Source of the DNA: Escherichia coli
GTDB lineage: Bacteria; Pseudomonadota; Gammaproteobacteria; Enterobacterales; Enterobacteriaceae
Reading direction: 5' to 3' (one strand)
Assembly (NCBI RefSeq): GCF_003334315.1
Contig: NZ_QOWR01000083.1
DNA: 12,666 nt
Shown here: piece after piece, positions 1 to 12,279 of the stretch
Layout of the letters: each line of letters begins with the position of its first letter
How positions within the stretch are numbered: position 1 is the stretch's first letter
Position numbers and translations under genes: made by a program
The notes under the pieces: model-generated
The model's database searches: none
The model's input: the letters and a program-made list of their open reading frames with translations, nothing else
Told to the model about the DNA's origin: nothing

Positions 1-149
1 GGTTGAGAAGCGGTGTAAGTGAACTGCAGTTGCCATGTTTTACGGCAGTGAGAGCAGAGATAGCGCTGATGTCCGGCGGTGCTTTTGCCGTTACGCACCA
101 CCCCGTCAGTAGCTGAACAGGAGGGACAGCTGATAGAAACAGAAGCCAC
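1..149 (-). CDS. insA: IS1 InsA transposition protein, N-terminal 49 codons (partial, runs off window)
   Basis: GTG start at 147-149 on the minus strand. Translation: [49 protein letters not shown], with the CxxC...CxxC zinc-finger arrangement typical of InsA. Confidence 0.8.
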
Positions 150-204
150 TGGAGCACCTCAAAAACACCATCATACACTAAATCAGTAAGTTGGCATCAT
201 CACC
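1..204 (-). mobile_element. IS1 insertion sequence, left end (partial; element continues beyond the window start)
   Basis: Reverse complement of 1-204 reads GGTGATGATGCCAACTTACTGATTTAGTGTATGATGGTG...GTGGCTTCTGTTTCTATCAGCTGTCCC..., which matches the IS1 left terminal inverted repeat and the start of insA as I recall them. It differs at one base from the canonical IRL (GATGATG here, GATGCTG recalled). The gspD reading frame carries stops at 20-22, 50-52 and 62-64, so this segment is not gspD coding sequence. Confidence 0.85.
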
Positions 205-835
205 CATCCTCGCCACCCCAAGCATCGTAACGCTGGATAATAAACTCGCGTCCTTCAACGTGGGGCAGGATGTGCCGGTGCTATCCGGGTCACAGACCAC
301 TTCAGGGGATAACGTCTTTAATACCGTCGAACGCAAAACGGTGGGGACAAAACTCAAAGTTACTCCGCAGGTCAATGAAGGCGACGCGGTGTTGCTCGAA
401 ATAGAGCAGGAAGTCTCCAGCGTTGACTCTTCCTCTAACTCGACGCTCGGCCCGACGTTTAATACCCGTACTATTCAAAACGCCGTGCTGGTCAAAACCG
501 GTGAAACGGTGGTCCTGGGCGGATTGCTGGATGATTTTTCTAAAGAGCAAGTGTCAAAGGTTCCTCTGCTTGGCGATATTCCTTTAGTGGGGCAACTCTT
601 CCGCTATACCTCCACCGAGCGCGCTAAACGCAACCTGATGGTATTTATCCGTCCGACGATTATCCGTGACGATGATGTTTATCGCTCACTGTCAAAAGAG
701 AAATACACCCGTTACCGTCAGGAGCAACAACAGCGGATCGACGGGAAATCAAAAGCGCTGGTTGGCTCGGAAGATTTGCCGGTGCTGGATGAAAACACGT
801 TCAACAGTCACGCCCCTGCGCCATCGTCACGGTGA
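205..835 (+). pseudogene. gspD: gspD (T2SS outer-membrane secretin), 3' fragment encoding the C-terminal ~209 residues; 5' part displaced by IS1
   Basis: Open frame from the IS1 junction to TGA at 833-835. Translation (PILATPSIVTLDNKLASFNVGQDVPV...VVLGGLLDD...VPLLGDIPLVGQLFRYT...NLMVFIRPTII) is a secretin C-domain. No in-frame coding sequence exists upstream of position 205. Full-length GspD is about 650 aa (recalled). Confidence 0.85.
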
Positions 836-844
836 GGCATTCAT

Positions 845-9500: not shown

Positions 9501-9545
9501 TAGAAATATGAATAAAAATAATGGGCTACCAAAAGTAGCCCATTG

Positions 9546-9578
9546 ACAAAAAATGCGGCGATACTGGAAGGTATCGCC
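9546..9578 (-). terminator. Rho-independent terminator downstream of chiA
   Basis: On the minus strand: GGCGATAC-CTTCCA-GTATCGCC followed by GCATTTTTTG. Located 8 nt after the chiA stop. Confidence 0.65.
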
Positions 9579-9585
9579 AACACAT

Positions 9586-12279
9586 TTATTGCTTAGTAAA
9601 CGGCGCGAAGATTTCGCTAAATGCGTACTTCGGTGCCTGTTCTTTAGTCAGGCCGTGGAATTCCGGAGACAGGTTAGTGCCGCCCGGCAGGTCGCGCGCG
9701 ATTGACCAGATACCAACCATACCGAGATTACGCTTCTGCGCATCCTGCATGACCAGACGAGCATCAGAGAGATAGAACACCTCGCCCTGAACGTCGTTCA
9801 CGCCAACCATCGGCGTGGTACCCATCATAGCGTCAATTTCTGCATCGCTCTTATTGGGATGGAGGCCTTTCAATTGTGAATGCAGGTTGGCAATCGCAGA
9901 CGTTGCACACTTACCGTGAATGTTCTGGCCTTCGGTATTTGCAGACTGACAAATCGCGTTACCGTAGTCCATTGTCATCACGTTCACACCCGCCAGCTCA
10001 ACACCTTTCGCTTTGGCATCGCTCAGGACATTCATCCCTTCCGGCGTCAGGCCAGTCGGCAGAATTGGCAAGGTGTACCAGATAGCAATATCTTTGCCTT
10101 CTGACTTCCATTTATCCTGCACTTTCTTCACAGCAAGGTTACGACGTTCAATAGATGCCTGATCCGCAACCCAGGTGCCTTCGATATCGAAGTCCAGGAC
10201 TTTGAGGTTCAGGTTATCAACGATGTCATAATAATGCTGCATCAGATCGTCTACGTTCTTACAGGAAGCAGCCAGCGGAGCGTTGTTAGCACCACCGATA
10301 GACAGCATCACATCGCCGCCAGCCTCACGCAGAGCTTTGATTTTGCTGTACTGAGCGTAATTCTGCATACCGTAAGCGGTACCCCATGTCGGCAGACAGG
10401 TGTTCGCATCTTTACTCACCACAAACGCCAGCGTGAAGTGGTTGACGTTATGATTCTTAGCCAGCGCAGCCAGATCCGGGATCGTATTCAGCGTAAAGTC
10501 GACATACGGTGCATAAACGTGTTTCGGCCACGCTTTCTTCGGCGTACCTACGCGCTCTTTGGTTCCGGTCCAGTCAACAAAAACACGCCACGGGTTGCTG
10601 TCAGAAGGAGAAACTTTCTGCACTTTACTCTGAGAAATGTAGTTCACACCGTTAAAGCGAATCAGCGTATCGCTGGCATAAAGCGTTTCTGGATTAAACT
10701 GCGGCGCATTATTCAGCTCTTCGTTGCTATAGCTCTGAGCCTTACCTAACGGCTTCCACGGGCGGCTATTGCTACCGGTGGCGTTTTGGTTCGCCACCAG
10801 AGCAGGGTTGTCACTTTGCGTCCAGAACAGCGCTTCATAAGCCTGCCCATCAACAACAACGCGATCACCTTTCACGTACACAGTGGATGCGGACCATGCT
10901 TTCGCCGGTTCGTATTTCTTCCACGGGTTATCGCCGCCCGGGACAAAGCCCCATGCGTCTTGATCGACAGAAGTTTTATAATGTGCATCGTTATAATCTA
11001 CGATGCTGTCCGCGCTGTACGCTTTGCTGGCCTGGAAACCATCCGCAACAATGACGCCGCCGTTATCAATTTCACAGGTAGTCGGGTTACCGTACTGACT
11101 CAATTCCGCAGCGGTAGCTGTACGCTCGAGACGCCATGGGTTATTGGAGTTTTCAGCGCTGGTACCCCGTGGGCAATCTTTAGACCCAACCCACCAGGCG
11201 TTCTTGTAAACATTACCATTGAAAATAACATGGTAAATTTCGCTACCTTCCTGGCCGCTCCACGCTTGCAATGAGTAATCGTTAACGCTATCCGCTGGTG
11301 TTGATGGCTCGCTGTTATCCGGAGTTGGGGTCACCGGTGTTTCCGGAGTTGGATCAACCGGAGTCACAGCACCGCCATTATTATCCGGCTTAACGGAACA
11401 GGAGCCAGGGTTACCATACTGGCTGATTTCTGTTGCCGTTGCCGCGCGAACATAACGCCATGGGTTACTGGCATCGTTTTCTTTCGCATCGCCTGGGCAA
11501 TTTGCCGCGCCTACCCACCAGGCGTTCTTATAAATGCCGCCGTTATAGATAACGTACCATGTAGAAGAACCTTCCTGACCTTTCCAGGCTACTACAGCAT
11601 AGTTGTCGTTTGACTTATCAGCTGGGGCTGGCTGAACATCAGGAGCCGGTTTAACGTCCGGTGCCGGTTTCACATCCGGTGAAGGCTGTGGTGCTGAAGT
11701 ACAGGACTGTGGATTACTGGTTTCTGAGATTTCCGTTGCCGTAGCGGCACGAACATAACGCCATGGGTTGCTGGCATCATTGCTTTTCGCATCACCCGGA
11801 CAGTTAGAAGAGGCTACCCACCAGGCATTTTTATATACCGCACCATTAAAGACGACATACCAGGTCTGACCGCCCTGCTGTTTATTCCAGGCAACTACAG
11901 AAGAATTAGACGGAACAGTGCCCTGTGCTGGTGTAGCCGAACCGCCATTAGCCGGCGTATTGGATGCAGGCGTATTTGAATTTGAAGAAGATGAGCTGCC
12001 GCTCTTTTCGCAGGAAAGTGTATTGCCAAACTGACTAATTTCAGCAGCTGTTGCGGTACGCTTTAAACGCCACGGGTTAGTTGCATCATTTGCTTTCGCT
12101 TTTCCCGGGCAATTTGTAGAAGAAACCCACCAGGCATTTTCATAAATTTTGCCATCGAAAATAACCTGATATTTATTACCACCTTGTTGGTTATTCCATG
12201 CTTCCATTGCCAATGCTGGCAGAGCGGAACACACCAGCCCCATACCAATCATAGATTTAGTAAATATATTTAATTTCAT
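9586..12279 (-). CDS. chiA: Periplasmic/secreted endochitinase ChiA (GH18-like catalytic domain with N-terminal repeated carbohydrate-binding modules)
   Basis: 897-aa ORF. Sec-type signal peptide (MKLNIFTKSMIGMGLVCSALPALA). Four tandem ~60-residue modules with the pattern AW..Q.G..Y.V.F.G..Y.NAWWV...CPG...N.WR. A CBM5/12-like segment (KAWSASTVYVKGDRVVVDGQAYEALFWTQSDNP). A C-terminal domain with the class III chitinase motif LDFDIEG (Glu codon at 10180-10182). Confidence 0.93.
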   Translation of the reverse strand: MKLNIFTKSMIGMGLVCSALPALAMEAWNNQQGGNKYQVIFDGKIYENAWWVSSTNCPGKAKANDATNPWRLKRTATAAEISQFGNTLSCEKSGSSSSSNSNTPASNTPANGGSATPAQGTVPSNSSVVAWNKQQGGQTWYVVFNGAVYKNAWWVASSNCPGDAKSNDASNPWRYVRAATATEISETSNPQSCTSAPQPSPDVKPAPDVKPAPDVQPAPADKSNDNYAVVAWKGQEGSSTWYVIYNGGIYKNAWWVGAANCPGDAKENDASNPWRYVRAATATEISQYGNPGSCSVKPDNNGGAVTPVDPTPETPVTPTPDNSEPSTPADSVNDYSLQAWSGQEGSEIYHVIFNGNVYKNAWWVGSKDCPRGTSAENSNNPWRLERTATAAELSQYGNPTTCEIDNGGVIVADGFQASKAYSADSIVDYNDAHYKTSVDQDAWGFVPGGDNPWKKYEPAKAWSASTVYVKGDRVVVDGQAYEALFWTQSDNPALVANQNATGSNSRPWKPLGKAQSYSNEELNNAPQFNPETLYASDTLIRFNGVNYISQSKVQKVSPSDSNPWRVFVDWTGTKERVGTPKKAWPKHVYAPYVDFTLNTIPDLAALAKNHNVNHFTLAFVVSKDANTCLPTWGTAYGMQNYAQYSKIKALREAGGDVMLSIGGANNAPLAASCKNVDDLMQHYYDIVDNLNLKVLDFDIEGTWVADQASIERRNLAVKKVQDKWKSEGKDIAIWYTLPILPTGLTPEGMNVLSDAKAKGVELAGVNVMTMDYGNAICQSANTEGQNIHGKCATSAIANLHSQLKGLHPNKSDAEIDAMMGTTPMVGVNDVQGEVFYLSDARLVMQDAQKRNLGMVGIWSIARDLPGGTNLSPEFHGLTKEQAPKYAFSEIFAPFTKQ
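11074..12201 (-). repeat. Four tandem intragenic module repeats within chiA (about 300 nt each)
   Basis: Protein modules at about residues 27-90, 129-193, 230-294 and 339-402 share a conserved pattern. The nucleotide sequence also recurs, e.g. CCATGGGTT..GG near 11101, 11458, 11761 and 12073, and CCACCAGGCG/CATT near 11191, 11521, 11821 and 12127. Confidence 0.8.
11623..11688 (-). repeat. Short tandem repeat encoding a PAPDVK-type Pro-rich linker in ChiA
   Basis: + strand GCCGGTTTAACGTCCGGTGCCGGTTTCACATCCGGTG encodes PDVKPAPDVKPAPDVQPAP on the minus strand. Confidence 0.75.

Follow-up and report, generated by a model that had tools for sequence, protein, structure and literature searches.

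Probable stepwise, essentially neutral decay of type II secretion genes beside an intact chiA in an ordinary Escherichia coli clone

The window, a 12,666-nucleotide stretch of Escherichia coli DNA (contig NZ_QOWR01000083.1 of assembly GCF_003334315.1), is the chromosomal module of type II secretion system alpha (T2SS-alpha, encoded by the gsp genes), bfr, bfd, and chiA, located in the rpsJ-tufA interval, as determined from a listing of open reading frames (ORFs) and comparison with annotated genomes. T2SS-alpha is not present as a set of intact essential genes, since gspD is truncated at an insertion sequence, IS1, and gspK is frameshifted. The chiA gene, encoding the secreted endochitinase ChiA, is intact. 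The window very probably belongs to an ordinary E. coli clone whose T2SS-alpha module is undergoing stepwise, essentially neutral pseudogenization. Parts of this picture are already known: the gspK allele is a RefSeq pseudogene, IS1 insertions in the module are annotated in several genomes, and the link between ChiA and T2SS-alpha is textbook knowledge.

The gspK pseudogene (positions 5430–6333, plus strand) is derived from the gene for a minor pseudopilin. It is 904 nucleotides long, compared with 984 normally, and its alignment to strain PSS-13 shows that 80 bp are missing. The gap is bounded by the imperfect 10-bp direct repeats GCCAGCTTCA and GCCAGCCTCA, with the junction at 5527–5536, and the deletion may have arisen between these repeats by slipped-strand or illegitimate recombination. 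The frameshift ends translation at codon 39. A residual ORF (5572–6333) encodes 253 residues, in the native frame from residue 75, and lacks the N-terminal prepilin-like membrane anchor. The same allele is present in strain ES6, the RefSeq annotation of which labels the gene "frameshifted", and five or more independent assemblies also carry it. An assembly artefact was considered and rejected because independent assemblies share the allele; the possibility, raised with the original prediction, that gspK is intact in the real genome gives way to a real lesion. Among the matches listed from 5,426 complete E. coli genomes, the deletion is contiguous only in ES6. The E. coli B-derived record H138 has an intact gspK, and E. 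coli B is on that ground rejected as the source of the window.

Positions 1–204 (minus strand) are the left end of IS1, comprising its terminal inverted repeat and the start of insA, in an orientation opposite to that of the gsp operon. This segment matches annotated IS1 copies of ES6 at 100% identity and one copy of PSS-13 at 99.5%, and it stops precisely at the inverted-repeat terminus ...CAGTAAGTTGGCATCATCACC. Positions 182–204 are the reverse complement of the IS1 terminal inverted repeat GGTGATG(C/A)TGCCAACTTACTGAT, and the minus strand encodes the N-terminus of InsA, so that both the boundary repeat and the insA frame identify the element as IS1. From base 205, the window continues with gspD nucleotide 1323 (codon 441 of 650) and follows the secretin gene to its stop (205–835, plus strand), collinear with PSS-13 and K-12. 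The 209 leftover codons, in the correct frame beginning at 206, encode the same residues as K-12 GspD.

One IS1 junction is visible; the window does not extend to the 5′ portion of gspD or to the opposite end of IS1. The gspD gene is disrupted, whether by a simple insertion or by an IS1-mediated deletion or rearrangement. A complete IS1 is 768 bp long, and a simple insertion is flanked by a target-site duplication of about 9 bp. Searches for the exact junction between IS1 and gspD gave no match in 5,426 complete E. coli genomes, in GTDB representative genomes, or in JGI metagenomes, an exact protein look-up of the 214-residue ORF of the GspD remnant returned nothing either, and the opposite IS1 junction was not found in the collections searched. 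The gspD::IS1 allele of ES1-type strains is different, with the insertion site about 540 bp upstream of nucleotide 1323. The window starts inside IS1 and finishes 96 bases into tufA. This pattern is expected if the window is a complete contig from a draft assembly of short reads that broke at repeats, which would account for the unseen other half of gspD.

The remaining nine gsp genes, gspE, F, G, H, I, J, L, M, and O, are all full length, as originally predicted, with the refinement that two of them carry changes at invariant residues. The inner-membrane platform gene gspF (2323–3519, plus strand, 398 residues) encodes the substitution P167L (position 2822, codon 167). All 18 other T2SS-alpha alleles compared have this proline, and it is also kept in the paralogue of type II secretion system beta (T2SS-beta), which is about 45% identical. 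The gene looks intact, but P167L may cryptically inactivate it and so be a third loss-of-function lesion. The minor pseudopilin gene gspI (4480–4857, plus strand, 125 residues) carries the clone-specific change Q105R; Q105 is invariant in all other sampled alpha alleles, down to 87% identity.

These changes delimit the clone. An exact look-up of the window's GspI protein identified 38 index blocks, from which 24 contigs were read, and the clone is thus counted as at least 24 public contigs with the exact GspI-R105 protein. Six of these contigs, from NCBI, Logan, and ENA assemblies, were examined, and all six contain the gspK deletion and a gspD encoding the complete 650-residue protein. The contig NJMY01000081.1 (GCA_002466665.1) is 100% identical to window positions 205–12363. 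It begins at the second base of gspC and stops 84 bp upstream of chiA; such ends suggest that in this isolate the module may be flanked on either side by further inserted repeats or insertion sequences. The closest complete relative is ES6, isolated from frog-farm sediment, which has the gspK deletion and shares GspF P167L with the window, has an intact gspD, and carries its IS1 copies elsewhere.

The gspD and gspK lesions are independent and sequential, since the clone-mates share the gspK deletion and retain gspD, and the IS1 in gspD is found in the window alone. The claim in the original prediction that the two lesions are independent is thereby supported. From the distribution of the alleles, the gspK deletion and GspF P167L came first, followed by GspI Q105R together with a C>T change at position 12395, and the IS1 in gspD is the latest event. 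Every step after the first lesion falls within an already disabled machine. Two to four point differences separate the deletion-bearing clone from relatives with the intact genes, and the decay is therefore recent. The nearest genomes are E. coli of 4.5–4.8 Mb from human faeces, frog-farm sediment, pig, bird, and sewage. Their IS1 matches number from about 17 to at least 38, compared with a species median of about 10–12; this IS1 richness explains why IS1 is the agent of the later lesion. In the 118 kb of ES6 that were inspected, gspK is the sole gene with a pseudogene flag.

In the most probable model, the decay proceeded in three steps. The 80-bp deletion between imperfect repeats frameshifted gspK, disabled the secretion machine, and became fixed in the clone. 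Changes at otherwise invariant residues followed, GspF P167L, shared with ES6, and later GspI Q105R; other members of the clone gathered mostly non-synonymous changes in gsp genes and chiA. In the third step, particular to the sequence of the window, IS1, abundant in the lineage, apparently landed at nucleotide 1323 of gspD and separated the secretin's N-terminal two thirds from the reading frame. IS1 is strongly polar, and its polarity would block transcription of gspE–O from the gspC promoter. The cell would have no secretin and no functional pseudopilus tip. De-repressed ChiA would reach the periplasm by means of its Sec signal peptide and would not cross the outer membrane through T2SS-alpha. 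In this model, chiA is intact simply owing to its four-fold smaller target and the short elapsed time, without demonstrable selection.

The chiA gene (9586–12279, minus strand) encodes an endochitinase/lysozyme of 897 residues. Its DNA is 100.0% identical to that of K-12 derivatives, and the protein is the same as K-12 ChiA, an assignment based on DNA and protein identity and on Pfam. ChiA (YheB) contains all of its expected features: a Sec signal peptide, a chitin-binding module (CBM_5_12, 1.5e-7), and a GH18 domain (Glyco_hydro_18, 1.3e-9) with the DxDxE motif present as DFDIE at residues 696–700. The full frame, signal peptide, and catalytic motif that had been read from the sequence were all borne out. 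The AT-rich region upstream of chiA (12280–12570, minus strand) includes the tufA terminator (12520–12547), which coincides with a terminator-like site in the sequence scan, and, at 12395, the C>T change. This change, 116 bp before the start codon of chiA, occurs clone-wide and is absent in ES6, PSS-13, and K-12. A promoter scan around 12395 places it between promoter-like hexamers and inside no consensus hexamer. The GC content is 34% across the 5′ end of chiA and its upstream region (12001–12500) and 40% around bfd (9001–9500), and these low values are consistent with the binding of H-NS that the literature describes. The premise that the K-12-type system secretes ChiA and is silenced by H-NS agrees with Francetic et al. 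2000, as cited in passages of PMC2649431, PMC11390585, and PMC3707838.

The original prediction presented a decayed machinery beside an intact substrate gene as a surprise, and this does not hold. The gspE–J segment is present in 3,136 and chiA in 3,163 of the 5,426 complete E. coli genomes, and since the two counts nearly match, the module is gained or lost as a block; block-wise gain and loss of the gsp-chiA module is also described in a passage of PMC11390585. The counts were obtained with gspE–J and chiA queries. Coverage of at least 80% of the whole window, found in 2,438 genomes, was not used for integrity because it is distorted by the IS1 and tufA repeats. Fifteen loci were instead taken from an evenly spaced ranking of chiA-positive complete genomes, and their gene integrity was re-derived. 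Six of the fifteen have a lesion in gspC–O, each a different one, and chiA is intact in all fifteen. The six lesions are IS100 in gspM, IS1203 in gspL, nonsense changes at codon 46 of gspO, codon 302 of gspK (reference strain ATCC 25922), and codon 328 of gspL, and a 5-bp frameshift in gspO (ST131 strain 18044). The sample suggests that T2SS-alpha may be broken in about 40% of chiA-positive E. coli genomes (95% confidence interval 16–68%), an apparently high frequency.

The gspC–O genes span about 11.3 kb and chiA 2.7 kb, a roughly four-fold difference in target size. Random hits would miss chiA with a probability of 0.65 for two hits, as in the window, and 0.28 for six, as in the sample. Because target size makes a miss of chiA likely, an intact chiA next to broken gsp genes needs no special explanation. 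Other RefSeq-annotated gsp pseudogenes of E. coli (ES6, ES1-type strains, PSS-13, ATCC 25922, and ST131 strain 18044) resemble the window in affecting the same operon next to an intact chiA, and that of ES6 in gspK is the very same allele.

IS1 occurs at other positions of the module as well. It is located in gspC of PSS-13 (5452–6149 of the locus extract), in the gspA-gspC and chiA-tufA intergenic regions of ES6 (862–1559 and 16106–16803), in gspD of ES1 and eight others (3333–4030 in ES1), and in the 5′ end of chiA of DLI.6n (4045–4742), where chiA was therefore also hit. In total, near-identical strains have IS1 in at least five module positions other than that of the window, and differing match spans hint at more. 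The module may be a hot region for IS1, with its AT-rich, H-NS-bound DNA, or the insertions may simply be an effect of a high IS1 load.

The decay inside the clone contrasts with the longer history of the module. The deletion-bearing clade has eight non-synonymous and two synonymous changes, five to one in the gsp genes and three to one in chiA, compared with 80 to 184 between the window and the phylogroup B2 strain ATCC 25922 (Fisher p = 0.002 for 8:2 against 80:184), a contrast drawn with no control genes carrying single-nucleotide polymorphisms. This weakly suggests that both the machinery and chiA may be unconstrained inside the clone. The comparison with orthologs called for at the outset yields ratios of non-synonymous to synonymous substitution rates (dN/dS) between phylogroups of 0.03–0.41 for the gsp genes and 0.095 for chiA, relative to ATCC 25922. 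These values are far under 1, and over the history of the species the module has therefore been subject to purifying selection.

Several of these points weigh against neutral decay as a complete account. The low long-term dN/dS indicates that the module is not junk species-wide, and its loss may reduce fitness in certain niches. The non-synonymous excess in the clone could reflect the time-dependence of dN/dS, which is generally inflated among very close genomes. Furthermore, the second IS1 junction is unseen, and it is from the visible end that we infer an insertion in gspD.

A bolder alternative, which we regard as unlikely, is that T2SS-alpha is repeatedly and preferentially lost across E. 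coli and that chiA is kept by selection for a role independent of T2SS-alpha. If this were true, the contrast of six broken machineries and no broken chiA among the fifteen sampled genomes would be the first hint of a secretion system uncoupled from its sole known substrate. Candidate roles of ChiA would then be export by T2SS-beta, release by vesicles or lysis, or a periplasmic lysozyme-like function.

A related explanation is that T2SS-alpha is redundant, as ChiA is still exported by T2SS-beta (sslE-pppA-gspS2-gspC..M) or another route. The second cluster proposed in the original prediction was looked for and found to be structurally possible: a complete T2SS-beta cluster (sslE-pppA-gspS2-gspC..L-yghD) without pseudogene flags is present in ES6, a strain with the same gspK deletion as the window, so the lineage of the window probably has a second type II machine, although the cluster is observed in a relative and not in the source genome. 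T2SS-beta resembles T2SS-alpha in being a paralogous machine with the same component set and differs from it in its locus and known substrates. ChiA can also matter in vivo, as deletion of chiA lowers the adherence of mastitis E. coli according to a passage of PMC11390585. However, the passages of the literature that bear on this assign ChiA to the alpha system and SslE and LT to the beta system, and they describe that deletion of pppA blocks beta secretion (SslE in strain W, LT in H10407) despite the presence of GspO, with no compensation under the conditions tested. The GspF proteins of the two systems are only about 45% identical, and the three non-synonymous to one synonymous changes in chiA of the clone give no sign of purifying selection. 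In addition, an IS1 copy of ES6 (25593–26290 of the locus extract) directly precedes sslE, which opens the T2SS-beta operon, and this copy could either silence or activate the system. Export of ChiA by another route is accordingly quite improbable as the explanation of the observed state.

We consider it very unlikely that the inactivation of T2SS-alpha is adaptive, for example by sparing the cost or immunogenicity of leaky expression of the secretin or pseudopilus. Six different lesions among the fifteen sampled genomes, at least four distinct IS1 sites in gspA–D among near-identical strains (the window included), and the lack of chiA lesions in the sample are what such selection might produce. 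The lesions are however distributed like random hits over gspK, L, M, O, C, and D, the absence of chiA lesions fits the target size (P = 0.28), and chiA was hit in DLI.6n too. An operon silenced by H-NS should cost little, the presence of gsp and chiA is tightly coupled (3,136 and 3,163 genomes), and the IS1 hits are located in IS1-rich genomes.

Shigella-like reduction is characterized by a massive expansion of insertion sequences, several hundred pseudogenes, a smaller genome, and a single host. Genome-wide reductive evolution of this type in a host-restricted lineage is extremely improbable here: relatives do reach at least 38 IS1 copies, compared with the species median of about 10–12, and ES6 has IS1 beside other loci too, but the relatives come from varied hosts and environments and have normal genomes of 4.5–4.8 Mb, gspK is the sole flagged pseudogene in the inspected part of ES6, and similar gsp decay is present in unrelated generalists including ST131 and ATCC 25922. 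From the proposal of an early-stage pseudogenization of a silent system, the recent stepwise decay therefore stands, and the comparison with Shigella-like lineages is not supported: the relatives are ordinary and, apart from their IS1 richness, gave no other sign of reductive evolution.

The T2SS-alpha component set of the window, D, E, F, G–K, L, M, and O, is in canonical order and collinear with K-12, PSS-13, and ES6; gspC and gspAB lie outside the window. Pfam searches of identical products from contigs of the clone identified the families Secretin, T2SSE, T2SSF, T2SSG, GspH, T2SSI, T2SSJ, T2SSK, T2SSL, T2SSM, and Peptidase_A24. The intact genes of the operon, all on the plus strand, encode the secretion ATPase GspE (845–2326, 493 residues, identical to WP_001219894.1 of PSS-13 and K-12), the major pseudopilin GspG (3529–3966, 145 residues), the minor pseudopilins GspH (3974–4483, 169 residues) and GspJ (4850–5437, 195 residues), GspL (6348–7511, 387 residues), GspM (7508–7969, 153 residues), and the prepilin peptidase GspO (7969–8646, 225 residues). 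Between gspO and chiA, the minus strand carries the intact genes for bacterioferritin, bfr (8675–9151, 158 residues), and bacterioferritin-associated ferredoxin, bfd (9223–9417, 64 residues), both assigned from the ORF listing and the annotation of collinear loci. The last 96 bases (12571–12666, minus strand) are the 3′ end of tufA, with coordinates transferred from the PSS-13 annotation; tufA has a genomic duplicate, tufB. An Rfam scan of the window identified no RNA family.

The T2SS-alpha of K-12 has the same locus and gene order and about 99.9% DNA identity to the window, and its ChiA and most of its Gsp proteins are identical. It differs in having intact gspD and gspK and in lacking GspF P167L and GspI Q105R. 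Cryptic operons silenced by H-NS decay through insertion sequences and mutations in both E. coli and Shigella. The window is similar to these cases in the multiple independent hits in a silent operon and in IS1 as an agent, and it differs from them in presenting no evidence of host restriction or genome-wide reduction.

The ordering of the lesions in this clone provides a small, clean example of a ratchet operating after a first inactivating hit. At the level of the species, the presence of gsp and chiA is a poor proxy for a working T2SS-alpha. This bears on studies in which finding gsp and chiA serves as a functional marker of virulence or fitness, such as the genome-wide association study of mastitis E. 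coli (PMC11390585).

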